This document shows positions 7,213 through 56,973 of a stretch of DNA of 64,000 nucleotides, piece after piece. The notes under the pieces were generated by a model. The model was not told where the DNA came from. It was given only the letters and a program-made list of their open reading frames with translations, and searched no databases. Numbering within the stretch: position 1 is the first letter of the stretch; every line of letters begins with the position of its first letter. The translations under genes and the position numbers were made by a program. The stretch covers positions 62,001-126,000 of the forward strand of contig JAWMAR010001141.1 in assembly GCA_036785375.1 (NCBI GenBank). Direction: 5' to 3'. The DNA comes from Leucoraja ocellata (taxonomy: Eukaryota).

Positions 7213-7299
7213 CGTGGTCACAGAGAGAGAGAGGTCCATGTTTGCTGATGGAGTGGTCTCCAATTCGTGCTGTTCACGACTTGCTCTTGTTTGATTTCA

Positions 7300-15440: not shown

Positions 15441-15596
15441 TTAATTATTATCAGTGAGAATTGTTGCGTACACAACTTCTGCGGCACCTTGCCTCTTGGC
15501 TTGTCCTTGTGTGTTCAGATCCTGAAGGTTCATGTAAGTATTATCCGTGTTAGCTGGAGGACGGGTTGTCACGGTGGTATAAATGACAGGGGTTTC
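15441..15596 (-). CDS. Gene 2 terminal cytoplasmic exon with ITIM motifs
   Basis: ETPVIYTTVTTRPPANTDNTYMNLQDLNTQGQAKRQGAAEVVYATILTDNN*. Acceptor tttctcacttgactccaaag is phase 0, matching exon 16276-16328 (GSNGQRIMSQQNPADSFK|gtaagg). Confidence 0.85.
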   Translation of the reverse strand, partial: ETPVIYTTVTTRPPANTDNTYMNLQDLNTQGQAKRQGAAEVVYATILTDNN

Positions 15597-18500: not shown

Positions 18501-21500
18501 GTTAATTGACTTCTGTAAATTGTTCCTAATGTGTAGAACAGAACTGGTGTATGGGGTGATCGCTGCTCAGAGCGGACTCGGTGGGCCAAAGGGCCCATTT
18601 CCACGCTGTATCTTTAAACTGAGCTGAACTGAACTTAACTAATTTGTTCTCAGGTGAGGCTGAGTTGACTCTTCGAGTTACTGACCTGTTTCCATCTGAT
18701 GAACCAGAAGCCTCATTGGAACTTGCTGCCTTGGTGGTTGGTGTACCTTGAGGCATGGTGGTCAGAGTGGTTGTGGTGGAAGCCTTTGTGATTATTGTTG
18801 TAGAGGTGGTGCTGACCATGTCTGGGCTGCTTGTTGGAGATCCTTGTGGAGATAAAGTGAATGAAGTTTTTGAACATTAAATGTGTGAAATCACGTTCTG
18901 TGCCACTTTAGTGATGTGTGGGAGATGCCTCAGTTGGCAGCGCTCTTGCTCTGTGTGGGGAGATTCCTGGGTTCAAATCCCAATCCAGACATTTGGGCAA
19001 AGATCCTTCTGAGGCCACCATAGATGGACCAAGCCCCTTGATCTAGACCGGAGGCTCACCCATTAAGATGCCACCAGATTGTCGCAAGCATTCAGAGACT
19101 TCTTTCATGCCCTCCATAGTCCCACAGGCTGTGTTATCTGCCTGCTGCTAGAGTTAGGCACATGTCTTCTACATTGGAGAAGAACTTGGGAGCGGGAGGA
19201 TCCATGGACTATTTTCATTACGCGGACTGAATTCAAAATAATGCAATTTGGTTGGAGGTATCTACCTGAAACATTAACTCTCGTTCTCTCTCCACAGAAG
19301 CTGCCCGACCCGTTGAGTATCTCAACTTGTACAGTTTGTGTGACTCAGTGTAAAGTCTATATCACTCATCTCTTGAGGATTCTTAGTTCATTAGTTCATA
19401 AGTGATAGGGGCAGATTGAGGCCACTTGGCCCATTGAGTCTATTCCGCCTTTCAATCACGGCTGATCTATCTCTCCCTCTCAACCCCATTCTCCTGCCTT
19501 CTCCCCATATTGCTTGACACCCGTACGAATGGAGAACCTGTCAATCTCCACCTGAAAATACCCAATGACTTGGCCCTCATTGGAAACATGGTAAAAGATT
19601 TTCCCTGTACCTCAGTACAGACGACAACAATAAACTGAGCTCATGAATCACCAAAGTTTGTGAGACACAAGGAATTGCAGGTGCTGGAATTTTAAGCAAA
19701 ACACAAAGTGCTGGAGAAACTCTGCAGGTCAGGCAGCATCCGTTGTAGAAATGAACTGACACTCTTTAGTGTTGGGTCCCTTCTTCAGATGTTGTGGGTG
19801 TGACAGTGACGGGCAGGGGGAGAGGGTGAGGGGGCACCAGAGGTTCTGGCTGTTCCCCTGCTCCAGTGAGGGGCGGCAGAGGTTCTAGACCCGGAGCGAT
19901 CGTCTTTGGGGAAATGAGCCGCCAGCAGCAGAACCGCCGGTCCCCATTGATGAGCCCCCCCCCCCCCCCCCCACACACACTGCTCCTGGGACAGTGGGCT
20001 CTTGGTGTGGCCCCATGAGCCGGGACCCCAGTAAATGTGCTCCCCCCTCCTTCACCCCGACCCCCGGGGATGTGGCACCGAGTCACCGTCAGCACCGAGG
20101 CCGGGAATTCCCAGGCTGGAATGTTCACATCTGGGAGAGTGAGGAGAGATCGTCAACGTACCTTCAGAAACCGTCAATGAGATGGAGGTCCTTTCATTGC
20201 TTGAAAATATTCCCTTTACAATCACACACCAGTAGCGTCCTTCATCACTCTTCTCCAGGTTGTCGATGGTTACTGAAACTATCAGTTGTGTTTTGTTATC
20301 ACTCATCGATGTTCTCCTATATTGTGGTGAGTCATCAGTAGAAACCACGGTATCAGATATTATGTAATAGTAACCTTTCTTCCATAGCTTCTTGTTGTCA
20401 GTGTATTCCTGACCATACTGACATTCCACTGTGACCGACTGCCCCAACTCTCCCCTCACCTCCTTGGGTCCAGTTATTCCCCTTAACCCTGTGGACACAT
20501 TAATGATGAAAGATCACTCACACTGCAGCAACACAAGCTGAGGTTTAACAATAAAAAACATGTCATTTGTGCTGTTCAGACAGGTTCATGGTTTCGCATA
20601 GATCATGTGTAGCAAGGAACTGCAGGTGCTGGTTTACACCAAAGATAGACACAAAGTGCTGGAGTAACTCGGCGGATCAGGCAGAATCTCTGGAGAAAAT
20701 GGATAGGTGTCCTTTTTGGGTCGGGACCATTCTTGATCTCCCGGTTGCCAACCCTGTCCATGTCCCTTCCCATTCCCACACTGACCTTTCTGTCCTGGGC
20801 CTCCTCCATTGCCAGAGTGAGGCCACATGCAAATTGGAGGAACCGCACCTCATATTGGGCTCAGGTAGTTTACAACCCAACGGTTTGAACGTTGGTTCTC
20901 TAATTTTAAGTATCTTCTACTAACCTGCCCCCTCCCCCATTGACTCCTATCTCCACCCGGGTTTCCCACCACCTGCCCCAGTGAGGGGCGGCAGAGGTTC
21001 TGGTCCCGGAGCGATCGTCTTCGTGGAAATGAGCCGTCAGCAACAGAACCGCCGGTAGATGGGATCTTCCGTGGGGCTGGTGTCTGACAGCCCCCCCCCC
21101 CCCCCCCCCCCCCCCATACTGCTCCAGCGACAGTGAGCTCTTGGTGTGGCCCCACGGGCCGGGACCCCAGTAAGTGAGTTATCCACCCAACCCCCTTACC
21201 GCGACCCCCCCGGGGATGTGGCACCGAGTCACCGTCAGGACCGAGGCCGGGAATTCACAGGCTGGAATTTTCACATCTGGGAGAGTGAGGAGAGATCGTC
21301 AACGTACCTTCAGAAACCGTCAATGAGATGGAGGCCGATTCAATGAATGAATGTTTTCCCTTTACTATCACACACCAGTAGAGTCCTTCATCACTCTTCT
21401 CCAGGTTGTCGATGGTGACTGAAACTATCGGTTGTTCTTTGTCATCAGTCATCGATGTTCTCCCTTGTTGTGGGTGATCAGTAGAAACCACGGTAGAAGA

Positions 21501-24298
21501 TGGAAGGAAATAATCACCTTTACTCCATAGCTTGTCGTTGTCTTTGTATTTCCGATCATACTGACATTCCACAGTGACCGACTGCCCCAACTGTCCCCTC
21601 ACCTCCACGGCTTCAGTTATTCCCCTTGATCCTGTTGGCACATTAATGATGAAAGATCACTCACACTGCAGCAACACAAGCTGAGGTTTAACAATAAAAA
21701 ACATGTCATTTGTGCTGTTCAGACAGGTTCATGGTTTCGCATAGATCATGTGTAGCAAGGAACTGCAGGTGCTGGTTTACACCAAAGATAGACACAAAGT
21801 GCTGGAGTAACTCAGCGGGACGGGCAGCATCTCTGGAGAAACCGACGGGTGATGTTTCCTCGCCCATTCCTTCTCTCCAGAGATGCTGCCCGTCCCGCTG
21901 AGTTACTCCAGCATTTTGTGTCTCTCTTCTTCTGCATAGATCCTGTTGCACTTTAATGCTTTTCCCGCTGGTGTTAATTCCCATTTCACCGGGGATTGTT
22001 CCCCAAGTTCCAGTGAAAGCAGAACTGAGTTCCTTCTTGAACACTTTGTCTACTCCACTGCGATATCTATCTTCCAGCATCTGCAGTTCCTTCTTGAACA
22101 CTGCTTCTGAATCTACCTGGCGCCCAGATCCTCCTTCCCTGTGGGCGTGGCTTGACCGGAGTGGTGGTCATGTGACAGGAAGCCAACCTGTCACTCACTC
22201 TGACCCACCCTGTGTTCAATCTCACTACAACCCACTTCCCCATTGAACTAGTAGAAACAAGGAACTGCAGATGCTGGTTAATGTACAAAAGGACACAAAG
22301 TGCCGGAGTAACACAACGGGACAGGAACTATCTCTGGAGAAAGAGGAACTCTCTGGGTGAAAAGATATTTCCTCATCTGAGTCCTCAATGGCCTACCCGT
22401 TATTGAGGTCACAACCTTAAACTGGACAGGAACTATCTCTGGAGAAAGTGGATAGATGATGATTCATAGAAACATATAAACATAGAAAATAGGCGCAGGA
22501 GGAGATGATTCGGCCCTTCGAGCCGGCACTGCCCAGTTCTGCTTGCTCCCGTTATCCCATGATTCCATTAGCCCTAAGAGCTAAATCTAACTCTCTCTTG
22601 AATACATCCAGTGAATTGGCCTCCACTGCCCTCTGTGGCAGAGAATTCTACAGATTCACAACTCTGGGTGAAAAGGTTTCTACCCCATCTTAACTTAATT
22701 GTGTGTGTTAGTTGTCTGTGCGTTATGTGTGTGTGTGTGTGTGTGGGAGGGAGGGAGGGAAGTAGAGAAAGAAGGGATGGAGCGAATGGGACCCTCTGGA
22801 TACATGGATAGGACAGATTTGAAAGGACTTGGACCAAACATGGACAGGTGGGACTAGTGTTGCTGAGACATGTTGGCCGGTGTGGGCAAGAAGGGCCGAA
22901 GGGCCTGTTTCCACACTGTATCACTCTATGACTCTAACACATGTGAAACTCTGCAGATTCAGGAGCTGGGGTGGAGACACATCATCGCATCAGTCCAGGT
23001 CGGCTCACAAGCCACAAGACAAATGCCTTGAAGGAGAACTCAGAGGCTTTGGAAAGCACAGTGTGTAGAACAGCTCGAGCAGCAGAGTCTGTTGTAAGGC
23101 AGCTGGTTTTTCTCAGAAGGGAGAGATTACCACAACTTCTCCAAATGCTAAATTGGACAGTCACTCTGGTGCTTCCTCATTTGAGATGACGCCTGTTCCC
23201 AATGGCTGGCTTTCACAGGTTTTTTCTTTGAATGTGCTAAGGTTTAGGTTCAACATTTCCCATTGCAGTGCGTGGAGGGAGTGCCGTGTGTCTTTGATAG
23301 ACACTAAAATGCTGGAGTAACGCAGCGGGTCAGGGGGCATCTCTGGAGAGAAGGAATGGGTGACGTTTCGGGTCGAGACCTTTCTTCAGACCCACAGTCA
23401 GGGAGGGAGGAAGTCAAGAGATATGCAAGGGGTAAAGCATTTAGCTGATCTGCTGTCAAGTCACTGAGCACACAGCATCACAACAGTCATTAGTGCAGGG
23501 AAGAACAAGTCTGCAAGCATTTTATCTTTAGCAGCTCGTAGCCCAGTTGTCTGCTCTGTGGCTCAAAATAATTCAAGGTGCTGGCAAATAATTCTGAAGA
23601 ACAGATCACAAGTTCATTAGTACTAGGAGCAGAATTAGGCCATTTGGCCCATCAAGTCTACTCTCCCCCATTCAATTATGGCTGATCTATCTTTCCCTCT
23701 CAACTAAATCCTCCTGCCTTTTCCCCAGGTCTCCTGACACCAGTACTGATCAAGAATCTATCCCATCTCGGCCTTAGAAATACCTATTGATGGCCTCCGC
23801 AGTCTGTGGCAATGAATTTCCACAGTTTCTGTCTCACAAAATTCCTCCTCATCTCCTTCCTAAAGCAACGCCCTTTAATTCTGAAGCTGCGACCTCTGGT
23901 CCTAGAGTCTCCCACTAGTGTAAACATCCTCACCCCATCCACTCTATCCAGGCCTTTCACTATTCAGTAAGTTTCAATGAGGTCCACAAGGCAAGGCAAG
24001 CTGTAGATAGTTATCTCCCGACTTGGGCTGCAACACAACACGACAACAACCACTGATGGAAGTCTCTACAGGAACTAACGAGTGTTGAGCAATTCATCAT
24101 CAGCTCCCCACACAGTACAGAGAGGTCTGTGGTTACAAATAATTCAAGGCGTTGGTAAATAATTCCTCAGAACAGAGCATTTTGTAAAACAACGATTTAC
24201 CTGGTGTGAGACCAACAGCGACAAGAACCAACAGAGCGACCTGTTCCCCTGGATCTGGGCCATCTCTGGTGGGTGAATTCTCCCTGTCCCACCGCCAT
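15441..24298 (-). CDS. Gene 2: inhibitory CD300/pIgR-like (MDIR-type) receptor, about 407 aa if the leader is intact. Exons 24201-24298 (leader, +1 frameshift), 21308-21631 (Va), 20162-20488 (Vb), 18686-18842 (mucin stalk), 17983-18092 (TM), 16276-16328, 15441-15596 (ITIM tail)
   Basis: GT-AG introns with consistent phases from Va to the stop (1,1,2,1,0). TM VVLPIALTIVFLLFIAGIILCV then KMRQRKK. Tail contains VIYTTV, TYMNL and VVYATI. The leader is 98 nt against 97 nt in the gene 3 paralog. Confidence 0.8.
15705..15740 (-). ncRNA. Minimal hammerhead ribozyme motif in a Penelope-derived repeat (also 1297-1332 and 56649-56685 on +)
   Basis: CUGAAGA-A-GGGU(CUCG)ACCC-GAAAC-GUC core with a palindromic minimal stem III. 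Confidence 0.55.
16618..17575 (-). mobile_element. CR1 LINE endonuclease/linker fragment in a gene 2 intron
   Basis: EDFLECIRDGFLYQYVEEPT...LDWVLCNE; PEDWEKFR. Confidence 0.8.
17983..18092 (-). CDS. Gene 2 transmembrane exon (uncharged)
   Basis: VTFSWKVVLPIALTIVFLLFIAGIILCVKMRQRKKT; acceptor ttttgcag, donor gtaagt, phase 2-1. Confidence 0.88.
18686..18842 (-). CDS. Gene 2 Ser/Thr-rich mucin-like stalk exon
   Basis: GSPTSSPDMVSTTSTTIITKASTTTTLTTMPQGTPTTKAASSNEASGSSDGNR; 157 nt, acceptor ctttatctccacaag, donor gtcagt. Confidence 0.85.
20162..20488 (-). CDS. Gene 2 V-set Ig exon Vb
   Basis: GQSVTVECQY...W...SDEGRYWC...ISLTVSE; 327 nt, phase 1-1, ccacag/gtacgt. Confidence 0.92.
21308..21631 (-). 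CDS. Gene 2 V-set Ig exon Va
   Basis: GQSVTVECQYDRKY...W...SDEGLYWC...ISLTVSE; 324 nt, phase 1-1. Confidence 0.92.
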
Positions 24299-32934: not shown

Positions 32935-34227
32935 CTGAAAAGCTAAACGATGATTATTGGGCGTCATTTCCGTCAGAATAACAATATTGATATAACGATT
33001 ACCCTTCATTTTTATCTTATTCTTCTAACGCGTGTCCACAGTTCATTACGTAATCATTTAACCGTTTTTACATCCCCATTGTTCAATGGTTCAATGGTAC
33101 TTTATTGTCTCATGCACATGCGTACAGTGACATTTCTTTTGTATAGAATTCAGTAAAAATCTTACTTGATATAAGCACAGCTGAAGCTAAGAACAAGAGT
33201 ATTAATAGCAGATTATATGATGCAGTACACAAGAGTTGCCACATTACTGGCAGTATCTTATATTCTTAAACATCAAACTGGGCTTAAAGGCCATTTTATT
33301 TGGGTTTAAAGGCCCGTTGTCATGGAGACGGCACTGGGTGGGAGTTGCAGGGGTCGGCCTGGCCTGGCGATGTTGTCGGTGCCTCCACCACCGCTCCGTG
33401 CCGCTGCAGGCCGTGTCCGATCCGCGCGCTCGTCCCCGACTCTGTGGGGCCTCCAGCGGCACCCGATCCACTGGCTGCTGCAGGGCCTCCAGCAGCCCAC
33501 TCGCACTCCGCCCACACCTCGACCCACCAACGCACCCTTTTCCCCTGCCTCCCACGGCCGTCTCCATGCGAGGTGAGGCCTCACCCAGCCAGCTCACCGG
33601 CGCTGTTCCTCTCCTTCCTCCACCACTGCCGACCCCATCTCCAAGGTCTTGGCTTTTTTTTCCTTGAATAACAATTAAAACACAGTTTATAATCTCCACC
33701 ATCAAATTTTACCCGAGGAAATGACCCAGGGCGGCACAGTGGCGCAGCGGTAGAGTTGCTGCCTTACAGCGCCAGAGACCCGGGTTTGATCATGACTACG
33801 GGTGCTGTCTGTACGGAGTTTGTATGTTCTGCCTGTGACAGCGTGGGTTTTATCTGGGTGCTCCGGTTTCTTACCACAATCCAAAGACGTGTAGTTTTGT
33901 AGGTTAATTGGCCTCTGTATAATTGTAAATTGTCCCTCGTGTGTAGGATAGTGCGAGTGTACGGGGTGATCATTGGTCGGCGCGGACTTGATTGGCTGTA
34001 TACCCTTTAATAATATCTGACAATGTGCACTTTAACCACGTGTGATTTTTTCAATTACAAATCTCAAATTGTGGAATACAGAGGCAAATAAATAAATGAA
34101 GGGTCTTTGTCCCAAACATTATGGAGGGCGCTGTATGTCCACACTTTATCTCTACAAATCGAAAGTAAATTCCCATCATTTCCAGTTGAATTTAATGTGA
34201 ACATCAGAGTGAAGAGATTGCAAACTT

Positions 34228-34342
34228 TCACCTTTTCAAAGTTGTCACACAGCTGATGGAAACCGGGAAGAGAAGCAGAATTCCAAAGAGTACCCAGCGT
34301 AACACACCCCAAACACGGCAAACGATGTTCAGCATGGTGTCC
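34228..34342 (-). CDS. Gene 3 transmembrane exon with charged Arg (activating type)
   Basis: Acceptor ttccttggatttccag, phase 2 matching the stalk donor. The correct frame (VWGVLRWVLFGILLLFPVSI) is not in the ORF track. Confidence 0.82.
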
Positions 34343-35391
34343 CTGGAAATCCAAGGAAATATTATTACTTCCACACAGAGTTACCACAGATCAACGCTGG
34401 CAATTTTCTTTCATCATATTGCCCCTGGAATCATTCAGTGTGATCCAAGGTTTTGGCGTGGACATTGGTGAGATGTTGATATCGCAACATGCACCCATTC
34501 CTTGGAGGTGTTCCATGACTACATACATTAACAACTTAGATGTTCATTTTGATGGTCAGACATAGAGCACGAAAACATGTCCTTTGACCCAATTTCCCCC
34601 ACGCCGACCAAGATGTCCTTATCTACACTAGTCCCATCTGCCGGCCTTAGATGTTAATGTTGGAAGTATGATTTACGAGTTTACAGATTACACCAACATT
34701 GTCTCATTTTGGATAGTACGATAATCATAGACCACAGAGGGATAAGAAGCAACTGGTATGTTGGGCAGAGCAATGCCAGCAGGTATTGAACTGTGATAAG
34801 TGTGAAGTTATTTGTTTTTGGCATCATGTAAGGGTAGACATTCACAATGGTAGGGCCACTGGGTGTACTAAGGACAGAGGGACTTTAGTCAGGGCCAAGG
34901 AGTATTTATCAATGGACTGGAATGTGATCAGCCACGCTTTCTCAAAGTACTGGGACTTTGAGTCACTGACCTGTGTCGAGGCGATGAACCAGGAGTCCCT
35001 GGTGGTCGATGCTTCTGGAGGCAGAGTGGGTGTGGTGGTTCCTGAGGTGGTGGTGACCATATTTTAATCCAGTTTAGTTTAATTTTGAGATATAGCGCGG
35101 AAACAGGCCCGACGGCCCATGGAGTCCACACCGACCATCGATCCTCGCACACTAACACTAGGCTACACACACACTAGGGTCAATTGACACATACGCCAAG
35201 CCAATCTACTTACATACCTGTATGTCTTTAGAGTGTTGGAGGAAATCAAAGATCTCAGAGAAAACCCATGCGGTCGTGGGGATAACGTACAAACCCCGTA
35301 CAGGCAGCACCTGTAGTCGGGATCGAACCTGGGTCTCTGGCGCTACAAGCGTTGTAAGGCAGCAACTCTACCGCTGCGCCACCGTGCAACC

Positions 35392-35422
<31 letters not shown>

Positions 35423-38400
35423 ACCAAAGTGGTGAGGATATCTGGGTGATATGTTTGAGACCCTTGTGAAGATAAAGTGAATGAAGTCTTTGAACATTAA
35501 ATGTTTATAATCACGTTCTGTGTCACTTTAGTGACGTGTGGGAGATGCTTCAGTTCGGAACGATCTTGCTCTGTGTGGGGAGATTCTTGATTCGAATCCC
35601 AAACCTGAGATTTGAGCAAGGATCCTTCCTAAACCACCATAGATGGACCAAGCCCCTTGATCTAGACATGAGGCTCGCCCATTGAGATGTCAGCTCAGCG
35701 GTAGAGTTGCTGCCTCACAGCACAGTAGACGCGGGGTCGATCCTGATACCGGTGCTGTCAGTGCAGAGTCTGTACGTTCTCCATGTGATCGCAAGAGTTT
35801 ACTCTGGGTTCTCCAGTTTCCTCCCACATTCCAAAGACGTGCGGGTTTGTAGTAAGTTGCCCCTAGTGTGTAGAACAGAACTGGTGTATGGGGTGATCGC
35901 TGCTCAGAGCGGACTCGGTGGGCCAAAGGGCCCATTTCCATGCTGTATCTTTAAACTGAGCTGAATTGAACTGAACTAATTGGTTCTCAGGTGAGGCTGA
36001 GTTGGCTCTTCGAGTTACTAACCTGTTTGTAGGTGTTGAACCAGGAGACTCTGTGGAACTTGCTGCCTTGGTGGTTGGTGCATCTTGAGGCATGGTGGTC
36101 AGAATGGTTGTGGTGGAAGCCTTTGTGCTTATTGTTGCAGAGGTGGTGCTGACCATGTCTGGGTGGCTTGTTGGAGATCCTTGTGGAGATAAAGGGAATG
36201 ACGTTTTTGAACATTAAATGTCTGAAAGTACGTTCTGTGCCACTTTAGTGATGTGTGGGAGATGCCTCAGTCGGGAGCGCTCTTGCTCCGTGTGGGGAGA
36301 TTCCTGGGTTCAAATCCCAATCCAGAGATTTGAGCAAAGATCCTTCTGAGGCCACCATAGATGGACCAAGCCTCTTGATCTAGACCGGAGACTCACCCAT
36401 TAAGATGCCACCAGATGGTCACAAGCATTCAGAGACTTCTTTCATGCCCTTCAGAGTCCCACAGGCTGTGTTATCTGCCTGCTGCTAGAGTTAGGCACAT
36501 GTCTTCTACACTGGAGAAGAACTTGGGAGCGGGAGGATCCATGGACTATTTTCATTACGCGGACTGAATTGGAAATAATGCAATTTGGTTGGAGGTATCA
36601 CCTGAAACATTAACTCTCGTTCTCTCTCCACAGAAGCTGCCCGACCCGTTGAGTATCTCATCTTGTAGAGTTTGTGTGACTCAGTGTAAAGTCTATATCA
36701 CTCATCTCTTGAGGATTCTTAGTTCATTAGTTCATAAATGATAGGGGCAGATTGAGGCCATTTGGCCCATTGAGTCTATTCCACCTTTCAATCACGGCTG
36801 ATCTATCTCTCCCTCTCAACCCCATTCTCCTGCCTTCTCCCCATATCGCTTGACACCCGTACTAATTGAGAACCTGTCAATCTCCACCTGAAAATACCCA
36901 ATGACTTGGCCCTCATTGGAAACATGGTAAAAGCTTTTCCCTGTACCTCAGTACAGACGACAACAATAAACTGAGCTCATGAATCACCAAAGTTTGTGAG
37001 ACACAAGGAATTGCAGGTGCTGGAATTTTAAGCAAAACACAAAGTGCTGGAGTAACTCAGCAGGTCAGGCAGCATCCGTTGTAGAAATGAACTGACAATG
37101 TTTAGTGTTGGGTCCCTTCTTCAGATGTTGTGTGTGTGGTGGGTGTGACAGTGACGGGCAGGGGGAGAGGGTGAGGGGGCACCAGAGGTTCTGGCTGTTC
37201 CCCTGCTCCAGTGAGGGGCGGCAGAGGTTCTGGACCCGGAGCGATCGTCTTTGGGGAAATGAGCCGCCAGCAGTAGAACCGCCGGTCCCCATTGATGCCC
37301 CCCCCCCCCCACACACACACACACACACTGCTCCTGGGACAGTGGGCTCTTGGTGTGGCCCCATGGGCCGGGACCCCAGTAAATGTGCTCCCCCCTCCTT
37401 CACCCCGAACCCCCGGGGATGTGGCACCGAGTCACCGTCAGGACCGAGGCCGGGAATTCCCAGGCTGGAATGTTCACATCTGGGAGAGTGAGGAGAGATC
37501 GTCAACGTACCTTCAGAAACCGTCAATAAGATGGAGGTATTTTCATTGCTTGAAAATATTCCCTTTACAATCACACACCAGTAGCGTCCTTCATCACTCT
37601 TCTCCAGGTTGCCGATGGTGACTGAAACTATCCGATGTGTTTTGTTATCAGTCATCGATGTTCTCCCTCGTCGTGGGTGATCAGTAGAAACCACGGTAGA
37701 AGAAAACAGGTAATAATCACCTTTACTCCATAGCTTGTCGTTGTCTCTGTATTCCTGACCATACGGACATTCCACAGTGACCGACTGCCCCAACTCTCCC
37801 CTCACCTCCTTGGGTCCAGTTATTCCCCTTGACCCTGTGGGCACATTAATGATGAAAGATCACTCACACTGCAGTAACACAGGGGGCGGCAGAAGTTCTG
37901 GTCCCGGAGCGATCGTCTTCGAGGAAATGAGCCGTCAGCAACAGAACCGCCGGTAGATGGGACCTTCCGTGGGGCAGGTGTCTGACAGCCCCCCCCCCCC
38001 CCCCCCCCCCATATTGCTCCTGGGACAGTGAGCTCTTGGTGTGGCCCCACGGGCCGGGACCCCAGTAAGTGAGTTATCCACCCAACCCCCTTACCGCGAC
38101 CCCCCGGGTATGTGGCACCGAGTCACCGTCAGGACCGAGGCCGGGAATTCCCAGGCTGGAATTTTCACATCTGGGAGAGTGAGGAGAGATCGGCAACTTA
38201 CCTTCAGAAACCGTCAATGAGATGGAGGCCGAATCGTTTCCCTTTACAATCACACACCAGTAGAGTCCTTCATCACTCTTCTCCAGGTTGTCGATGGTGA
38301 CTAAAACTATCCGTTGTGTTTTGTCATCAGTCATCGATGTTCTCCCTCGTCGTTGGTCATCAGTAGAAACCACAATATAAGATTTCTGGTAATAATCACC

Positions 38401-41400
38401 TTTACTCCACAGCTTCCTGTTGTCTCTGTATTGCTGACCATACTGACATTCCACTGTGACCGACTGCCCCAACTCTCCCCTCACCTCCACGGGTCCAGTT
38501 ATTCCCCTTGACCCTGTTGGCACATTAATGATGAAAGATCACTCACACTGCAGCAACACAAGCTGAGGTTTAACAATAAAAAACATGTAATTTCTGCTGC
38601 TCAGACAGGTTCATGGTTTCGCATAGATCATGTGTAGCAAGGAACTGCAGGTGCTGGTTTACACCAAAGATAGACACAAAGAGCCGGAGTAACTCAGCGG
38701 GACAGGCAGCATCTCTGGAGAAACCGACAGGTGATGTTTCCTCGCCCATTTCCTTCTCTCCAGAGATGCTGCCCGTCCCGCTGAGTTACTGCAGGATTTT
38801 GTGTCTCTCTTCTTCTGCATAGATCCTGTTGCACTTTAATGCTTTTCCCGCTGGTGTTAATTCCCATTTCACCGGGATTATTCCCCAAATTCCAGTGAAA
38901 GCAGAACTGAGTTCCTTCTTGAACACTTTGTCTACTCCACTGCGATATCTATCTTCCAGCATCTGCAGATCCTTCTTGAACACTGCTTCTGAATCTACCT
39001 GGCACCCAGATCCTCCTTCCCTGTGGGCGTGGCTTGACCTGAGTGGTGGTCATGTGACAGGAAGCCAACCTGTCACTCACTTGACCCACCCTGTGTTCAA
39101 TCTCACTACAACCCACTTCCCCATTGAACTAGTAGAAACAAGGAACTGCAGATGCTGTTAATGTACAAAGGACACAAGTTGCCGGAGTAACACAACGGGA
39201 CAGGAACTATCTCTGGAGAAAGAGGAACTCTCTGGGTGAAAAGATATTTCCTCATCTGAGTCCACAATGGCCTTCCCGTTATTGAGGTCACAACCTTAAA
39301 CTGGACAGGAACTATCTCTGGAGAAAGTGGATAGGTGACGATTCATAGAACATATAAACATAGAAAATAGGCGCAGGAGGGAGACGATTCGGCCCTTCGA
39401 GCCGGCACTGCCCAGTTCTGCTTGCTCCCGTGATCCCATGATTCCATTAGCCCTAGAGCTAAATCTAACTCTCTCTTGAATACATCCAGTGAATTGGCCT
39501 CCACTGCCCTCTGTGGCAGAGAATTCTACAGATTCACAACTCTCTGGGTGAAAAGGTTTCTACCCCATCTTAACTTAGTTGTGTGTGTTAGTTGTCTGTG
39601 CATCGTGTGTGTGTGTGGGAGGGAGGGAGGGAAGTAGAGAAAGAAGGGATGGAGCGAATGAGAGAAAGGAAAAGAGCGGAAGGAGGGAGGGAGAGGGATG
39701 CCAGGGTCGGGGCAGATGGGTGTGAGGTGAGGCCGATGTTTGTATACGATGCCCCAGCCCCCGGCCCAGCCCTCCGTGTAATTGTTCACCGCCTCTCCCC
39801 GGGAGAGAGAGGGTGGAGCCGGGGCTGTGTGCGTGAAGCACGGCGACTGGAGGGGCAGGAGCGCTGCGGAGTGAACGACCCACCTCCCCCTCTCCCCCTT
39901 CTCCATTCCCCTCACACCCCCTCCCTGTCTACCCCTTTCTTCCCCCTCCACCCCTCTACTCTCTCTCCACCCGGGGTAGATCTACCCGTCGAGAGTAGGT
40001 TACACTGGCGCGGGGCCTCCTTACTCGCGGGGTACAATTGGGAGCAATCGATCCAATCGGCTTAAGGCCGGCCCTGGGTATTCAGTATTCAGTATTTACT
40101 TTAATGTCATTTTAACTTACATACACAGAAGAAACTAAAAATTGTTTCCAATCAGTTCCCGTAAGTGCAGTTAATAAAAACAGAATAAATACATATAGAT
40201 TTAAAATTAAAATTAACATATCTAAAATAGGCCTAAAAATTGAAATAAAAACAGGCATTCAGACCGAACAGTGGCTTTGCTTGGACAGGTGCCTAGCTGT
40301 CAAAAGTATAGGCGAGGTTAGATGTGTTGGTGTATGATGTATGGGGAGGGGACACAGTCCGTTAACCAGTCTTATTGCTGTGGGAAGAAGCTGTGAGCAT
40401 CCTGCTGGTTTTACATAGAAACATAGAAATTAGGTGCAGGAGTAGGCCATTCGGCCCTTCGAGCCTGCACCGCCATTCAATATGATCATGGCTGATCATC
40501 CAACTCAATATCCCGTACCTGCCTTCTCTCCATACCCCCTGATCCCCTTAGCCACAAGGGCCACATCTAACTCCCTCTTAAATATAGCCAATGAACTGGC
40601 CTCAACTACCCTCTGTGGCAGAGAGTTCCAGAGATTCACCACTCTCTGAGTGAAAAAAGTTCTTCTCATCCTGGTTTTAAAGGATTTCCCCTTTATCCTT
40701 AAGCTGTGACCCCTTGTCCTGGACTTCCCCAACATCGGGTACAATCTTCCTGCATCTAGCCTGTCCAACCCCTTAAGAATTTTGTAAGTTTCTATAAGAT
40801 CCCCTCTCAATCTTCTAAATTCTAGAGAGTATAAACCAAGTCGATCCAGTCTTTCTTCATAAGACAGTTTTGCAGCTGATGCTCCCCCTGTACCTCTTAC
40901 CAGGTGGCAGAATGGAGAAGATGTGGTGTGATGGATGATAGGGGTCCTTAATAATGGAGATGGCTCTGCTGATGTTACGCTTCTGATAGATCTCCAACAG
41001 GAAAGGGAGTGGAGCACCAATGATCCTACTGGCTGTCTTCACTATCCTGTTAAGTTGCTTTTGTTCATAAGCCTTGCAGCTCCCAAACCAGGAAGTGATG
41101 CCGTGGGTCAGTATATTCTCGATGGTGCCCCTGTAGAAGGACCTTAGGTGAACAGTAGGGAGACCTGCTTTACTTAGTCTCCGGAGAGGGTGGGACCCTC
41201 TGGATACATGGATAGGACAGATTTGAAGGGACTTGGACCAAACATGGACAGGTGGGACTAGTGTTGCTGAGACATGTTGGGCGGTGTGGGCAAGTTGGGC
41301 CGAAGGGCCTGTTTCCACACTGTATCACTCTATGACTCTAACACATGTGAAACTCTGCAGATTCAGGAGCTAGGGTGGAGACACATCATCACAACAGTCC

Positions 41401-42723
41401 AGGTCAGCTCACAAGCCACAAGACAAATGCCTTGAAGGAGAACTCAGAGGCTGGGGAAAGCAAAGTGTGCAGATCAGCTCGAGCAGCAGAGTCTGTTGTA
41501 AGGCAGCTGGTTTTTCTTAGAAGGGAGAGATTACCACAACTTCTCCAAATGCTAAATTGGACAGTCACTCTGGTGCTTCCTCATTTGAGATGACGCCCGT
41601 TCCTAATGGCTGGCTTTCACAGGTTTTTTCTTTGAATGTGCTAAGGTTTATGTTCAACATTTCCCATTGCAGTGCGTGGAGGGAGTGCCGTGTGTCTTTG
41701 ATAGACACTAAATGCTGGAGTAACGCAGCGGGTCAGGGGGCATCTCTGGATAGAAGGAATGGGTGACGTTTCGGGTCGAGACCTTTCTTCAGACCAACAG
41801 TCAGAGAGGGAGGAAGTCAAGAGAATATGCAAGGGGTAAAGCATTTAGCTGATCTGCTGTCAAGTCACTGAGCACACAGCATCACAACAGTCATTAGTGC
41901 AGGGAAGAACAAGTCTGCAAGCATTTTATCTTTAGCAGTTCGTAGCCCAGTTGTCTGCTCTGTGGCTCAAAATAATTCAAGGTGCTGGCAAATAATTCTG
42001 AAGAACAGATCATAAGTTCATTAGTACTAGGAGCAGAATTAGGCCATTTGGCCCATCAAGTCTACTCTCCCCCATTCAATTATGGCTGATCTATCTTTCC
42101 CTCTCAACTAAATCCTCCTGCCTTTTCCCCAGGTCTCCTGACACCAGTACTGATCAAGAATCTATCCATCTCAGCCTTAGAAATACCTATTGATGGCCTC
42201 CGCAGTCTGTGGCAATGAATTCCACAGTTTCTGTCTCACAAAATTCCTCCTCATCTCCTTCCTAAAGCAACGCCCTTTAATTCTGAAGCTGCGACCTCTG
42301 GTCCTAGAGTCTCCCACTAGTGTAAACATCTTCACCCCATCCACTCTATCCAGGCCTTTCACTATTCAGTAAGTTTCAATGAGGTCCACAAGGCAAGGCA
42401 AGCTGTAGATAGTTATCTCCCTTCTCCACAGGGAGCTAGCTGTGTGCGACTTGGCTGCACACAACACGACAACAACCGCTGATGGAAGTCTCTACAGGAA
42501 CTAACGAGTGTTGAGCAATTCATCATCAGCTCCCCACACAGTACAGAGAGGTCTGTGGTTACAAATAATTCAAGGCGTTGGTAAATAATTCTAAAGAACA
42601 GAGCATTTTGTAAAACAACGATTTACCTGGTGTGAGACCAACAGCGACAAGAACCAACAGAGCGACTGTTCCCCTGGATCTGGGCCGTCTCTGGTGGGTG
42701 AATTCTCCCTGTCCCACCGCCAT
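34228..42723 (-). CDS. Gene 3: activating-type CD300/pIgR-like receptor, about 334 aa. Exons 42627-42723 (leader), 38202-38513 (Va), 37511-37834 (Vb), 36023-36179 (stalk), 34228-34342 (Arg-TM + TGA); possible extra tail exon 32832-32934
   Basis: Leader MAVGQGEFTHQRRPRSRGTVALLVLVAVGLTPG|gtaaat is phase 1. V and stalk exons are open with matching phases. TM exon reads DTMLNIVCRVWGVLRWVLFGILLLFPVSISCVTTLKR* (intramembrane Arg, no ITIM). Confidence 0.8.
34971..35462 (-). pseudogene. Degenerate second stalk exon interrupted by an HE1 SINE (paralog 54309-54793)
   Basis: Same acceptor context (cactttatcttcacaag) and gtcagt donor as the functional stalk, Thr-rich coding remnant, SINE in the middle and shifted end phase. 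Confidence 0.7.
37511..37834 (-). CDS. Gene 3 V-set Ig exon Vb
   Basis: ORF 37065..37844; 324 nt, phase 1-1, canonical Ig Cys/Trp/YWC. Confidence 0.92.
38202..38513 (-). CDS. Gene 3 V-set Ig exon Va (12-nt in-frame deletion in FG loop)
   Basis: ORF 38074..38523; 312 nt, donor gtaagt. Confidence 0.92.
40078..41190 (-). mobile_element. Rex1/Babar-clade LINE 3' fragment (paralog about 62465-63010; missing from unit 1)
   Basis: LRRL.KAGLP...FYRGTIESILT.GITSWFGSC...HPSH.IFSILP.GKRYRS...SFFPQAIRL; (actgaat)n tail. Confidence 0.85.
40413..40866 (-). mobile_element. Young HER1/CR1 insertion nested in the Rex element
   Basis: TSD gtttt; empty site at about 62685; (tttctatg)n tail. Confidence 0.9.
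42627..42723 (-). CDS. Gene 3 signal-peptide exon
   Basis: acATGG start, basic n-region then VALLVLVAVGLTPG, phase-1 donor CAG|gtaaat; GAGGAAGAGG Ets-like box about 55 nt upstream. Confidence 0.65.
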
Positions 42724-50050: not shown

Positions 50051-53000
50051 CGTAGGTAGTTGTCTCCCTTCTCTACAGGGAGCTAGCTGTGTGCAATTTG
50101 GTTGCACACAACACGACGACAATCGTTGATGGAACGATCGAGTGTTGAGCAGTTTATCATTAGCACCTCACCCAGTACAGTGAGGCCGGTGGCTAAACAT
50201 CATTCAAGGCGCTGAGTAAATAATTCTAAAGAACAGAGCATTTTGTAATGGTTCGCACCAGAATAGTGGAGGATCTCCTTGTTCTGGGGCAAGTGGTATC
50301 TCATCAACCAAGGACACCAAAGTCATCTGTAGGATAGTTGTTGTTTTTTAAAGGGAACTTGTTGTGTCCAAATTAGATGCACACAAGTCTGCAAGGGCGG
50401 AATGTAGAAACAAGGAACTGCAGATGCTGGTTTATACCACATATAGGCACAAAGTGTTGGAGCATCTCAGCAGGTCAAGCAGCTTCTCTGGACAAAAAGG
50501 ATGGGTAACATTTCTCGATGGGACCCTTCAGAGTGGTCCTGACCTCCCAACTACTCCATTCGAGACCTTGGAACTATCTTTAATTGGATTTTACTAGACT
50601 GCATCTTGCATTGAACATTATTCCCTGTATCCTGTACCTGTGGACGGCTCGATTGTAATCATATACAGTGTTTTCACTGACTGGGTAGCATACACACAGA
50701 AAAGCTTTTCACTGCACCTCGGTACACGTGACTATAATTGGCTAAACTAAAGAGGTTGCCACAGATTCCTTGAATGCAAAAATGAAGTCATTGAGACTTT
50801 CAGAATGGGTTGGGTTTCACATGGTTTTTCAATGTGTGACCTGTGGTCTAGGTTCAACATTTCCCACGCTGTTTCTAGCAGGAGTCCTGTGTGACTTTAC
50901 CACGCTAACCGAGCCACACCAAGGCCCAGTGTTAGGTTCTGCAGTGCAAGCTCAGTAGGTGAAAACTATTGAGTGAGTTAGAGAGATGTTGGTTCAGTTC
51001 CCACTCCAGAACGCCGAGCACGGAGTGAGAGTTGTACTGAGGGAGCTCCGCAATGGAAACATAGAAGCATAGAAAATAGGCGCTGGAGTAGGCCATTTGG
51101 CCCTTCGAACCAGCACCGCCATTCAATATGATCGTGGCAGATCAACATAAATCAGTACCCAGTTCCTGCTCTCTCCCCATATCCCTTGATTCCGTTTGTT
51201 CTAAGCACTGTGTCTAAAGTTGCTGGAGGTGCTGTCACTCTGATGAGGCATTTAGCTGGCCTGCTGCTCTGCTGTCTGCTCTCACAAGCCTGCTCTCTCT
51301 CTTCAGGGCGGCACGGTGGTGCAGCGGTTTGCTGCTGCCTCACAGCGCCAGAGACCCGGGTTCGATCCTCTCTACAGGTGCTGTCTGTGTGGAGTTTGAA
51401 TGTTCTACCTGTGACCTCATGGGTTTCCTCCAGGTGCTCCGGCTTCCTCCCACATCCCTAATCCATGCGAGTTTGTGGGTTAAATACCTCTGCAAGATTG
51501 TCGCAAATGTGTAGGGAATGGATGACAAAGTGGGATAACAGAACTAGTGTGTGTACAGGTAGACAACAATGCTGGAGAAACTCAGCGTTTTTGTCTACCT
51601 TCGCTTTTCCAGCATCTGCTGTTCCTTCTTAAACATAGTGTGTACAGGTGATCAGTGGTCGGCATGGACTCGGTGGATCAATGGGCCTGTTTCCATTCGC
51701 TATCTCTAAACCAAACTAATTCTACTCTTATCACTTATGACTTTATGACAAAAATTCAGCCATCTTTTATTACATTGGATTATTTTAATCATTATTCAAT
51801 GTGCAGGGTTTCACACAGCAATTCAATTGGTAGTAAAGTTAAAAGTTCACATTCTGGAGAGCCAGCTTTGAGTTCTAGTCTATGTTCTGCTGTCTTTTGT
51901 GTGAATGTCAGGATGTACAGACGTGTCTGCAAACACAGGTACAGAATTTGGCCATTTGCTCCATCGATTCTACTCCGCCATTCAATCATGGATGATCTAT
52001 CTTTCCCACTCCATCCCATTCTCCTGCCTTCTCCCCTCAACCTTTGACACCCTGAGTAAACATGTCAATCTCCAATTTAAAAATATCCATTGACTTGGCC
52101 TCCACAGCCGCCTGTGGCAATTAATTCCACAGATTCATCACCCTCTGGCTAAAGAAATTCCTCCTCAAGTGGTCAAGGTAGATTGGACATAGGTGTGGTG
52201 TGGTGATGCTGTAGGGTCAAGGTGATGAGATTTGTACATCTCCAACTGGTGAACACCCTCTCTGGCCCTGAAAAGCTAAACGATGATTATTGGGCGTCAT
52301 TCCGTCAGAATAACAATATTGATATAACGATTACCCTTCATTTTTATCTTATTCTTCTAACACGTGTCCACAGTTCAATACTTGTAATCATTTAACCGTT
52401 TTTATATCCCCATTGTTCAATGGTTCAATGGTACTTTATTGTCTCATGCACATGCGTACAGTGACATTTCTTTTGTATAGAATTCAGTAAAAATCTTACT
52501 TGATATAAGCACAGCTGAAGCTAAGAACAAGAGTATTAATAGCAGATTATATGATGCAGTACACAAGAGTTGCCACATTACTGGCACTATCTTATATTCT
52601 TAAACATCAAATTGGCTTAAAGGCCCGTTTTATTTTGGGCTTAAAGGCCTATTATCGTGGAGACGGCACTGGGTGGGAGTTGCAGGGGTCGGCCTGGCCT
52701 GGCGATGTTGTCGGTGCCTCCACCACCGCTCCGTGCCGCTGCAGGCCGTGTCCGATCCGCGCGCTCGTCCCCGACCTCTGTGTGACCTCCAGCGGCACCC
52801 GATCCACCGGCTGCTGCAGGACCTCCAGCAGCCCACTCGCAGTCCGCCCACACCTCGACCCACCAACGCACCCTTTTCCCCTCGCCTCCCACGGCCGTCT
52901 CCATGCGAGGTGAGGCCTCACCCAGCCAGCTCACCGGCGCTGTTCCTCTTCTTCCTCCACCACTGCCGACCTCATCTCCAAGGTCTTGGCTGTTTTTTTC

Positions 53001-53565
53001 CTTGAATAACAATTAAAACACAGTTTATAATCTCCACCATCAAATTTTACCCGGAGGAAATGACCCAGGGTGGCACAGTGGCGCAGCGGTAGAGTTGCTG
53101 CCTTACAGCGCCAGAGACCCGGTTTGATCATGACTACGGGTGCTGTCTGTACAGAGTTTGTATGTTCTGCCTGTGACAGCGTGGGTTTTATCCGGGTGCT
53201 CCGGTTTCTTACCACAATCCAAAGACGTGTAGTTTTGTAGGTTAATTGGCCTCTGTATAATTGTAAATTGTCCCTCGTGTGTAGGATAGTGCGCGTGTAC
53301 GGGGTGATCATTGGTCGGCGCGGACTTGATTGGCTGTATACCCTTTAATAAAATCTGACAATGTGCACTTTAACCACATGTGATTTTTTCAATTACAAAT
53401 CTCAAATTGTGGAATACAGAGGCAAATAAATAAATGAAGGGTCTTTGTCCCAAACATTATGGAGGGTGCTGTATGTCCACACTTTATCTCTACAAATCGA
53501 AAGTAAATTCCCATCATTTCCAGTTGAATTTAATGTGAACATCAGAGTGAAGAGATTGCAAACTT

Positions 53566-53680
53566 TCACCTTTTCAAAGTTGTCACACAGCTGATGGAAA
53601 CCGGGAAGAGAAGCAGAATTCCAAAGAGTACCCAGCGTAACACACCCCAAACACGGCAAACGATGTTCAGCATGGTGTCC
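53566..53680 (-). CDS. Gene 4 Arg-containing transmembrane exon
   Basis: Same translation as 34228-34342. Confidence 0.82.
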
Positions 53681-56600
53681 CTGGAAATCCAAGGAAATAT
53701 TATTACTTCCACACAGAGTTACCACAGATCAACGCTGGCAATTTTCTTTCATCATGTTGCACACGGAATCATTCAGTGTGATTCAAGGTTGTGGCTTAGA
53801 CATTGGTGAGATGTTGATATCGCAACATGCACCCATTCCTTGGAGGTGTTCCACGACTACATACATTAACAACTTAGATGTTCATTTTGATGGTCAGACA
53901 TAGAGCACGAAAACATGTCCTTTGACCCAATTTCCCCCACGCCGACCAAGATGGCCTTATCTACACTAGTCCCATCTGCCGGCCTTAGATGTTAATGTTG
54001 GAAGTATGATTTACGAGTTTACAGATTACACCAACATTGTCTCATTTTGGATAGTACGATAATCATAGACCACAGAGGGATAAGAAGCAACTGGTATGTT
54101 GGGCAGAGCAATGCCAGCAGGTATTGAACCATGATAAGTGTGACGTTATTTGTTTTTGGCATCATGTAAGGGTAGACATTCATAATGGTAGGGCCACTGG
54201 GTGTACTAAGGACAGAGGGACTTTAGTCAGGGCCAAGGAGTATTTATCAATGGACTGGAATGTGATCAGCCACGCTTTCTCAAAGTACTGGGACTTTGAG
54301 TCACTGACCTGTGTCGAGGCGATGAACCAGGAGTCCCTGGTGGTCGATGCTTCCGGAGGCAGAGTGGGTGTGGTGGTTCCTGAGGTGGTGGTGACCATAC
54401 TTTAATCCAGTTTAGTTTAGTTTTGAGATATAGCGCGGAAACAGGCCTGACGGCCCATGGAGTCCACACTGACCAGCGATCCTCGCACACTAACACTAGG
54501 CTACACACACTAGGGGCAATTGACACATACGCCAAGCCAATCTACTTACATACTTGTATGTCTTTAGAGTGTTGGTGGAAATCAAAGATCTCAGAGAAAA
54601 CCCATGCGGTCATGGGGATAACGTACAAACCCCGTACAGGCAGCACCTGTAGTCGGGATCGAACCTGGGTCTCCAGCGCTACAAGCATTGTAAGGCAGCA
54701 ACTCTACCGCTGCGCCACCATGCAACCCCCCACACACACACACACACACACGCACCAAAGTGGTGAGGATATCTGGGTGATATGTTTGAGACCCTTGTGA
54801 AGATAAAGTGAATGAAGTCTTTGAACATTAAATGTTTATAATCACGTTCTGTGTCACTTTAGTGACGTGTGGGAGATGCTTCAGTTCGGAACGATCTTGC
54901 TCTGTGTGGGGAGATTCTTGATTCGAATCCCAAACCTGAGATTTGAGCAAGGATCCTTCCTAAACCACCATAGATGGACCAAGCCCCTTGATCTAGACAT
55001 GAGGCTCGCCCATTGAGATGTCAGCTCAGCGGTAGAGTTGCTGCCTCACAGCACAGTAGACGCGGGGTCGATCCTGATACCGGTGCTGTCAGTGCAGAGT
55101 CTGTACGTTCTCCATGTGATCGCAAGAGTTTACTCTGGGTTCTCCAGTTTCCTCCCACATTCCAAAGACGTGCGGGTTTGTAGTAAGTTGCCCCTAGTGT
55201 GTAGAACAGAACTGGTGTATGGGGTGATCGCTGCTCAGAGCGGACTCGGTGGGCCAAAGGGCCCATTTCCATGCTGTATCTTTAAACTGAGCTGAATTGA
55301 ACTGAACTAATTGGTTCTCAGGTGAGGCTGAGTTGGCTCTTCGAGTTACTAACCTGTTTGTAGGTGTTGAACCAGGAGACTCTGTGGAACTTGCTGCCTT
55401 GGTGGTTGGTGCATCTTGAGGCATGGTGGTCAGAATGGTTGTGGTGGAAGCCTTTGTGCTTATTGTTGCAGAGGTGGTGCTGACCATGTCTGGGTGGCTT
55501 GTTGGAGATCCTTGTGGAGATAAAGGGAATGACGTTTTTGAACATTAAATGTCTGAAAGTACGTTCTGTGCCACTTTAGTGATGTGTGGGAGATGCCTCA
55601 GTCGGGAGCGCTCTTGCTCCGTGTGGGGAGATTCCTGGGTTCAAATCCCAATCCAGAGATTTGAGCAAAGATCCTTCTGAGGCCACCATAGATGGACCAA
55701 GCCTCTTGATCTAGACCGGAGACTCACCCATTAAGATGCCACCAGATGGTCACAAGCATTCAGAGACTTCTTTCATGCCCTTCAGAGTCCCACAGGCTGT
55801 GTTATCTGCCTGCTGCTAGAGTTAGGCACATCTTTTCTACATTGGAGAAGAACTTGGGAGCGGGAGGATCCATGGACTATTTTCATCACGCGGACTGAAT
55901 TGGAAATAATGCAATTTGGTTGGAGGTATTTACCTGAAACATTAACTCTCATTCTCTCTCCACAGAAGCTGCCCGACCCGTTGAGTATCTCATCTTGTAC
56001 AGTTTGTGTGGCTCAGTGTAAAGTCTATATCACTCATCTCTTGAGGATTCTTAGTTCATTAGTTCATAAGTGATAGGGGCAGATTGAGGCCATTTGGCCC
56101 ATTGAGTCTATTCCACCTTTCAATCATGGCTGATCTATCTCTCCCTCTCAACCCCATTCTCCTGCCTTCTCCCCATATCGCTTGACACCCGTACTAATGG
56201 AGAACCTGTCAATCTCCACCTGAAAATACCCAATGACTTGGCCCTCATTGGAAACATGGTAAAAGCTTTTCCCTGTACCTCAGTACAGACCACAACAATA
56301 AACTGAGCTCATCAATCACCAAAGTTTGTGAGACACAAGGAATTGCAGGTGCTGGAATCTTGAGCAAAACACAAAGTGCTGGAGTAACTCAGCAGGTCAG
56401 GCAGCATCCGTGGAAGGAATGAACTGACAATGTTTAAGGTTGGGTCCCTTCTTCACCGGAGGAACAGCACCTCATATTCCGTTTGGGGAGTCTGCACCCC
56501 GGGGGCATGAACATCGACTTCTCCCAATTCTGTTAGTCCTTGCTGTCTCCTCCCCTTCCTCAGCTCCCCTGCTGTCCCCTCCCACCCTCCAGCCTTCCGG

Positions 56601-56942
56601 CTACTCCTCCTTTTCCCTTTCTTGTCCCCACCCACCCCCACCCCTGATCAGTCTGAAGAAGGGTTTCGGCCCGAAACGTTGCCTATTTCCTTCGCTCCAT
56701 AGATGCTGCTGCACCCGCTGAGTTTCTCCAGCTTTTCTGTGTAACCTCCCTTCTTCAGATGTTGTGTGCGTGGTGGGTGTGACAGTGATGGGCAGGGGGA
56801 GAGGGTGAGGGGGCACCAGAGGTTCTGGCTGTTCCCCTGCTCCAGTGAGGGGCGGCAGGGGTTCTGGACCCGGAGCGATCGTCTTTGGGGAAATGAGCCG
56901 CCAGCAGCAGAACCGCCGGTCCCCATTGATGAGCCCCCCCCC

Positions 56943-56973
<31 letters not shown>

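Follow-up and report, generated by a model that had tools for sequence, protein, structure and literature searches.

The sequence analysed here, called the window throughout, is a 64,000-nucleotide (nt) stretch of Leucoraja ocellata DNA (assembly GCA_036785375.1, contig JAWMAR010001141.1, positions 62,001 to 126,000 of the forward strand). It is animal DNA with many long and short interspersed nuclear element-like repeats, labels that come from our own reading of the open reading frames, and it contains a cluster of immune-type receptor genes that we number 1 to 4. A tblastn search of the window gave exactly nine V exons, all on the minus strand, and no flanking gene from outside the family was identified within the window. 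The seven V domains of genes 2-4 lack the disulfide between strands C and C' that is diagnostic for CD300/pIgR/TREM domains. We consider it reasonably probable that genes 2-4 encode CD300/pIgR-like receptors of the skate, which likely form an inhibitory/activating set and come from a shark-and-ray subfamily in which the C-C' bond is dispensable and was lost in two steps, the second Cys first. The features of the four genes are as follows.

37701..37730, minus strand: C-C' segment of gene 3 V2, W-S(AGT)-KGDYYLF-S(TCT), the site of the finding
37511..37834, minus strand: gene 3 V2 exon, a phase 1-1 V-set exon of 324 nt with Ser at both Cys positions (S/S)
38202..38513, minus strand: gene 3 V1 exon, 312 nt, FG loop shorter by 4 residues, W-S-KGDYYQK-S
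33581..42723, minus strand: gene 3, an open 360-residue model with leader 42723-42627, V1 and V2
36179-36023 and 34342-34232, minus strand: Ser/Thr stalk and transmembrane (TM) exon of gene 3
21308..21631, minus strand: gene 2 V1 exon, W-S-KGDYFLP-S
20162..20488, minus strand: gene 2 V2 exon, W-K-KGYYYII-S
15441..24298, minus strand: gene 2, with leader 24298-24201 (98 nt), V1, V2 and Ser/Thr stalk 18842-18686
18092-17983, then 16328-16276 and about 15596-15441, minus strand: neutral TM segment and tail exons of gene 2
60733..61056, minus strand: gene 4 V1 exon, W-R-KGDSYQK-S
59533..59859, minus strand: gene 4 V2 exon, W-S-KGYYYTN-S
57159..57485, minus strand: gene 4 V3 exon, W-S-KGYYYTN-S, a mosaic whose CC' and FG segments match V2
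52931..61056, minus strand: gene 4, three V exons, stalk 55510-55354, TM exon 53680-53570, tail from 53000
5385..5693, minus strand: gene 1 first V exon, W-C-x7-C kept, a distant paralogue with 31% identity to gene 3 V2
3737..4050 (5' boundary approximate), minus strand: gene 1 second V exon, L-C-x7-C kept, 22% identity to gene 3 V2

Gene 2 combines its neutral TM segment with a tail that holds three Tyr motifs (VIYTTV, YMNL and VVYATI). In the TM exons of both gene 3 and gene 4, an Arg is placed where the hydrophobic stretch begins, and the tails are short and contain no Tyr. By these motifs, gene 2 would be of the inhibitory type and genes 3 and 4 of the activating type, which suggests the layout of paired inhibitory/activating receptors. 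The nearest named proteins are 'pIgR-like' and 'CMRF35-like' models of Leucoraja, Amblyraja and Rhinoraja with 77-83% identity, and gene 4 V2 is identical to a Leucoraja erinacea domain. 'pIgR-like' is the automatic label of the databases, while the architecture of the genes is that of paired receptors.

All seven V domains of genes 2-4 contain W-[S/K/R]-x7-S in place of the W-C-x7-C of CD300/pIgR domains. In gene 3 V2, read on the minus strand, the Trp codon TGG (37730-37728) is followed by the Ser codon AGT (37727-37725), the loop KGDYYLF (37724-37704) and the Ser codon TCT (37703-37701). The second Cys position is TCT (Ser) in all seven domains, and the first is AGT in five, AAG (Lys) in gene 2 V2 and AGG (Arg) in gene 4 V1. 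The two domains of gene 1 retain C-x7-C, with codons TGC/TGC at 5592/5568 and TGT/TGC at 3944/3920. A first-pass annotation made from the letters alone had described this pattern, and its account holds codon by codon: both Cys are missing at the same spacing in all seven domains, a single substitution separates either AGT or TCT from TGT, the first position has become Lys or Arg in two copies, and both gene 1 domains keep the pair. The seven domains are 72-82% identical to gene 3 V2 and fall in one skate clade (99/96); therefore, we count them as one inherited event, not seven observations.

Apart from the missing pair, these are regular V domains. Pfam V-set is found in 7/7, and the B-F disulfide cysteines C22 and C86 as well as the C-strand Trp W35 are invariant among the Cys-less domains. 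A PDB sequence search with a skate domain returned pIgR and CD300 first. The AlphaFold model of gene 3 V2, built from a mixed alignment of 22 rows that includes relatives with both Cys, has a predicted local distance difference test score (pLDDT) of 95.6 and places the CC' loop (residues 37-43) between strands C (32-37) and C' (45-49). Its best match is mouse CD300lf both by Foldseek (E 5.7e-12, TM 0.91) and by VIA-align (Z 19.8, rmsd 1.2-1.3 Å, 105/107 aligned). The domains thus have the V-set fold and the closest solved relatives of a CD300/pIgR-type domain, while the C-C' disulfide, with its YWCR motif and C-x6/7-C spacing, is present in 0/7. Shark and ray relatives (47-65% identity) align across the segment, and those with both Cys (47-61% identity) do so without gaps and have them in the Ser columns, a register based on sequence alignment and not on residue-level superposition. 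These comparisons support the assignment of the domains to the CD300/pIgR type, with Ser, Lys or Arg in the Cys columns. Because relatives carry both Cys at these columns and 17/50 domains of the subfamily described below keep the pair, the missing pair is best read as a derived loss, in agreement with the first-pass annotation.

To place the loss on a tree, we took 31 proteins, namely the named chondrichthyan hits and the close hits, leaving out two isoform duplicates and two tetrapod-like hits, and cut out their V domains, of which 5 partial and 3 duplicate domains were dropped. The Cys and loop columns were removed. The gene 1 domains were omitted because they have long branches and the first tree had drawn the first of them next to P0008. 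Gene 1 was also rejected as the ancestral comparator, given its branches of 3.69 and 2.65 changes per column and its 22-31% identity to gene 3 V2. The resulting 66-domain tree separates a 50-domain elasmobranch subfamily (support 94/90) from 16 outgroup domains. Writing the state of the two positions as first/second with x for any other residue, the 50 domains comprise 17 C/C, 7 C/x, 26 x/x and no x/C. For Pristis and Heptranchias d3, a one-residue shift in the state labels was put right by hand; Cys presence is not affected. The seven domains of the window are placed inside a 24-domain skate clade, which has Ser at the second position in 23/24 domains and also holds Amblyraja P0006 with C...S. 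Beside this clade, at an unresolved node (88/83), are P0008, with three C/x domains, and Pristis (R/S). The stingray and manta clade has nine domains, all C/C, and the sharks are mixed: C/C, C/S and R/S in catshark, C/S in sawshark and C/x in sevengill. In the horn shark (Heterodontus francisci), the ectodomains of the inhibitory-type P0074 (C/C) and the activating-type P0159/P0160 (R/S) are identical at 152/159 residues, and both C-C' Cys are among the 7 differences.

Approximately unbiased (AU) tests, run with a quick tree on 38/50 rows (12 skate rows dropped, trait columns removed), reject the grouping of all disulfide-less domains into one clade (p 6.9e-5) as well as that of all double-loss domains (p 2e-7), and the 38-row tree requires a minimum of 5 state changes. 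We also surveyed 74/96 hits outside the subfamily (left out were 6 already in the tree, 3 more and 13 further bird entries), in which 227/243 domain rows were scorable: 219/227 are C/C, 5 are x/x and 3 are C/x. The disulfide is therefore missing in 33/50 domains of the subfamily (9/26 without the skates) and in 8/227 outside, counts that represent related sequences and not independent events. On these counts the loss is recurrent and far commoner in this subfamily than outside. Outside the subfamily, second domains of Acipenser, Polyodon and Huso (P0028, P0031, P0045, P0168, P0174) have W-S-x7-S while their first domains are C/C; they form a separate clade, and by this placement the same motif was reached independently. 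Sporadic loss is also seen in conger and platypus. Within the subfamily, the seven domains with only the first Cys, the absence of any with only the second and the C...S state of P0006 inside the skate clade speak against the 'concerted' loss proposed by the first-pass annotation. These states are most simply explained by a loss that begins with the second Cys.

The known ligand site of CD300 provides a possible reason for this dispensability. The cleft that accommodates murine norovirus and the phosphocholine head group in mouse CD300lf lies between CC' and CDR3 (FG), which are named as separate loops; its floor includes Cys36-Cys44, and calcium is held by Lys94, Gly96 and Asp98 (PMC6166816). 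In the skate domains, variability is highest in these two cleft loops, CC' and FG. We set the Asp98 register at Cys(F)+8, inferred from the numbering in that paper by taking Trp89 as the Trp of the YWC motif. An Asp at this position is found in 0/50 subfamily domains, in 9/16 domains of the tree outgroup and in 38/135 parseable outside domains (92/227 unparsed); Asp at +7 or +9 occurs in 7/50 subfamily domains. From the lack of Asp at Cys+8 in all 50, we infer that the whole subfamily has left the calcium/lipid geometry, which would make the disulfide floor dispensable. As a separate observation, the F-strand YWC Trp, which as Trp89 lines the same ligand pocket in CD300lf, is replaced (YQC, YLC, YIC, YTC) in C/C domains of P0009, P0010, P0019, P0020, P0014, P0091 and P0158, the first four of which belong to the stingray/manta clade, while YWC is kept in all skate Cys-less domains.

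The same two loops appear to travel together. Gene 4 V3 differs from gene 4 V2 in 0/72 nucleotide columns over residues 38-60 and in 1/78 over residues 83-108. Elsewhere the two differ in 14/111 and 4/66 columns, where gene 2 V1 is closer to V3 (7 and 2), and V3 has a V1-type 5' intron. Only in the CC' and FG segments does the Leucoraja model P0003 differ from gene 4 V3. This mosaic points to conversion or recombination that moves both pocket loops jointly; in primates, paired CD300 ectodomains are known to undergo gene conversion with each other (PMC12447643). The V exons also diverge more (0.113) than their 3' flanks (0.059; 150-nt flanks), and the Nei-Gojobori ratio of nonsynonymous to synonymous differences (pN/pS) over the whole exon is 1.70, which together hint at diversifying selection.

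From these results, we propose the following course. The subfamily descends from C-x7-C ancestors, and its CC'/FG pocket, with no Asp at the Asp98 register in any of the 50 domains, would already have moved away from the calcium and phospholipid-headgroup geometry. If the shark and skate branches then carried a Gly-x-Tyr-Tyr loop, the bond may no longer have been needed. The second Cys would have changed to Ser, and the unpaired first Cys may later have drifted or been purged to Ser, Arg, Lys or Thr; this ordered loss would have been repeated several times independently. In skates the loop is still 7 residues long with a small residue at position 2, and it likely remains a CD300-like hairpin without its covalent staple. 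The Cys-less domain would then have spread by exon duplication, and conversion or recombination may shuffle the CC' and FG loops among paralogues, which would suit paired receptors that respond to pathogen pressure by varying one binding face.

Several observations weigh against this course. The horn shark pair is a double loss with no intermediate seen; therefore, near-simultaneous loss can occur. The order of loss in the skate line depends on the unresolved node that joins Pristis, P0008 and the skates (88/83), the C...S of Amblyraja could be a reversion, AGT to TGT being one change, and the outgroup domain P0017 is S/C, with a loop deletion. With regard to the pocket, Asp at +8 is present in only 38/135 outside domains as well, at a position set by the numbering in PMC6166816. 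In sturgeon and paddlefish, the double-Cys loss occurs with one aromatic residue in the loop, and the Asp is retained in one of these domains; consequently, neither a Tyr-rich loop nor a missing Asp is required for the loss. Selection on the loop is not evident, since pN/pS in the CC' loop is 0.84 in contrast to 1.70 for the whole exon, although the pairs are non-independent and multiple hits per codon are common. Finally, an AlphaFold model from Cys-less rows only has pLDDT <50 at residues 44-52 and loses the C' strand, which fits a loosened edge. That model is shallow, with 11 rows, five models ranging from 36 to 82 and no matched C/C control.

One competing account is neutral decay: a bond of marginal value in every CD300/pIgR domain would disappear at random, and its absence would have become fixed in skates through duplication and gene conversion, without functional effect. 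The losses in human but not mouse pIgR D2, in lemurs and lorises (PMC12447643), in sturgeons, conger and platypus are of the sporadic kind that this account predicts, all seven domains of the window fall in one clade, and a comparison of pN/pS by region among the seven domains gave no excess in the CC' loop. However, the loss rate of 33/50 (9/26 without the skates) in the subfamily against 8/227 outside argues that the dispensability is lineage-specific, with the caveat that the counts are not phylogenetically independent, and drift does not readily account for a second position that stays Ser in 23/24 skate domains. We regard neutral decay as unlikely, but as the strongest of the competitors.

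Less likely still is that removal of the pocket floor was itself adaptive, shedding a pathogen ligand or separating the activating from the inhibitory paralogue. The use of the disulfide-floored CD300lf pocket by murine norovirus and phosphocholine (PMC6166816) makes such an escape conceivable, and in horn shark and catshark the activating-type copy is R/S, against two or one retained Cys in the inhibitory-type copy. Only two such pairs are seen, however; the pair is missing from both types in skates, and in Pristis the inhibitory-type protein has lost both Cys.

A further account is the one given by the first-pass annotation, in which joint loss of both Cys set free a flexible, Tyr-rich loop of antibody-like character, which went on to diversify. 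Its description of the loop is partly correct. In the seven domains, the 7-residue CC' loop ranks 12th of 103 windows in variability (0.91 bits per column, domain mean 0.50), and its aromatic fraction is 0.35 compared to a domain mean of 0.08, all windows ranked above it overlapping the loop. The FG loop is more variable, however, with a peak of 1.58, and positions 1-2 of the CC' loop (K, G) are invariant. The model from Cys-less rows that loses residues 44-52 and the horn shark double loss also agree with this account, as does the mean number of aromatic residues, 2.2-2.3 in disulfide-less loops versus 1.35 in C/C loops. This aromatic gap arises because the C/C loops of the stingray clade are aromatic-poor: at least two aromatics are found in 6/8 shark C/C loops, 0/9 stingray-clade C/C loops and 29/33 disulfide-less domains. 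In fact, horn shark P0074, with both Cys, has the same loop core (YYYLS) as its Cys-less paralogue. All losses in the subfamily lie on a Tyr-rich background, so that Tyr would have come first and the loss later, as judged from about five events and one retaining clade. We also asked whether loss required an aromatic residue at loop position 5 and set this idea aside as weakly discriminating, since such a residue is present in 32/33 disulfide-less domains but also in 11/17 subfamily C/C and 66/138 outside C/C x7 loops.

Nor does the loop appear to be released in sequence or length. Its pairwise difference relative to the framework is 2.6-fold in skates, 2.7-fold in stingray-clade C/C domains and 2.1-fold in shark C/C domains, and its length is 7 in 24/24 skate domains while four C/C domains have 9. 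On order the two models disagree: in the mixed-alignment model, residues 31-50 have pLDDT values of 96-97 and the loop contains a short helical turn, whereas the model from Cys-less rows loses residues 44-52. The order of the former may be borrowed from the covariation of the C/C rows, the latter is shallow, and pLDDT is not a measure of dynamics. Since the loops that form the three complementarity-determining regions (CDRs) of antibodies are BC, C'C'' and FG and do not include C-C', 'antibody-like' is a poor label. With seven C/x and zero x/C domains in the subfamily in addition, the causal story of a concerted loss and a freed loop is mostly not supported, and we find it doubtful; what the loss likely signals is a binding pocket that was remodelled, not an antibody-like loop newly set free. 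The idea that these are domains of a V-set family in which the second disulfide never existed, or that the serines are misaligned, either of which the first-pass annotation had named as fatal to its own reading, is refuted and almost certainly wrong, because antibody and T-cell receptor V chains do match the model but at Z about 15, some 4.5 Z below CD300lf by VIA-align, the segment aligns gap-free to C-x7-C relatives, and the domains are nested among C/C clades.

Among known systems, mammalian CD300 (mouse CD300lf/CLM-1; CD300A/CD300C) is the closest to genes 2-4, ranking second to pIgR in sequence matches and first in structure. The two share the V domain, the Ser/Thr stalk, clusters of inhibitory-type and activating-type members (by motifs only), the x7 spacing and ectodomain gene conversion (PMC12447643). 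In contrast to the single V domain of mammalian CD300, genes 2, 3 and 4 have 2, 2 and 3 tandem V exons, and the skate domains lack the second disulfide and the Asp at the Asp98 register, with about 33% identity. The activating-type genes have an Arg near the TM start, in contrast to the Glu of CD300C. Skate MDIRs (MDIR2-4 of the clearnose skate) are described as multigenic activating/inhibitory CD300/TREM/pIgR-like receptors (PMC3031540). The nearest relatives of the window's domains are skate proteins (Leucoraja, Amblyraja, Rhinoraja), and no match named MDIR was among their protein database hits.

Loss of the bond has precedents. The x7 pair is a typical pIgR feature (PMC9321927), and the same second disulfide (C57-C65, x7) was lost in a lineage-specific manner in CD300A/C of lemurs and lorises, a single-lineage observation for which the available text gives no loss order or link to loop composition (PMC12447643). 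In zebrafish, 39/127 NILT domains, called 'atypical', lack the CxnC motif (bioRxiv 10.1101/2022.04.21.489081), and carp SITR D1 has a single Cys pair (PMC3031540); NILT and SITR are teleost families, unlike genes 2-4. The pIgR-like D2 of sturgeon and paddlefish has the same W-S-x7-S spacing and differs in its separate clade, its one loop aromatic and its C/C first domain. By PDB-hit alignments, human pIgR D2 lacks both Cys while mouse D2 has them; the human replacements are not Ser, and D2 is an internal domain of an immunoglobulin transporter, unlike the skate receptors. Our literature searches, which did not extend to the original skate MDIR paper, turned up no account of the cysteines in this elasmobranch subfamily; that paper may already show the skate state. 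While loss of the bond is already known, it is defensible to regard as new an elasmobranch paired-receptor subfamily with frequent, likely ordered loss and near-identical C/C and Cys-less pairs.

The bond is both a diagnostic feature and the floor of the lipid and virus pocket of CD300lf, and a lineage that discards it often, apparently in one order, provides natural near-identical pairs for testing stability and ligand choice. In addition, motif-based annotation will miss receptors without the pair. A bolder extension, offered tentatively because we think it improbable as a whole, is that an undescribed shark/ray paired-receptor subfamily gave up the calcium/lipid pocket of CD300, filled this pocket with a Tyr-Tyr loop and repeatedly dismantled the disulfide floor in one order (second Cys to Ser, then the first), so that the bond would act as a ligand switch between inhibitory and activating copies that are nearly identical, with conversion tracts exchanging CC' and FG as modules. 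If so, the horn shark pair (96% identical, C/C versus R/S) would be a natural experiment on the role of the disulfide. We consider the importance moderate and mainly within comparative immunology, as the loss itself is not new and any ligand or function is conjectural.

The remaining observations concern the gene models. In gene 1, a TM exon lies near 2270-2153; a simple scan of 5731-15400 did not find its leader exon, and its stalk and tail exons are unmapped. The leader of gene 4 was not found within the window. The gene 2 leader is one base longer than that of gene 3 (position 24241), which as assembled causes a frameshift ahead of the signal-peptide core; the sole inhibitory-type gene to have Cys-less domains is therefore either a pseudogene or misassembled. 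The gene 3 tail exon (33662-33581) is one base short in an A-run compared to that of gene 4 (53000-52931) and encodes another short tail, a difference that is either real or a homopolymer error. Blocks of 4-5 kb with 97% identity (31698-37123 and 51029-56455; 22787-27055 and 41191-45471) indicate that genes 2-4 come from recent tandem duplication. Between gene 4 V2 and V3, a truncated stalk exon (57907-57851) is located at an apparent unequal-crossover junction.

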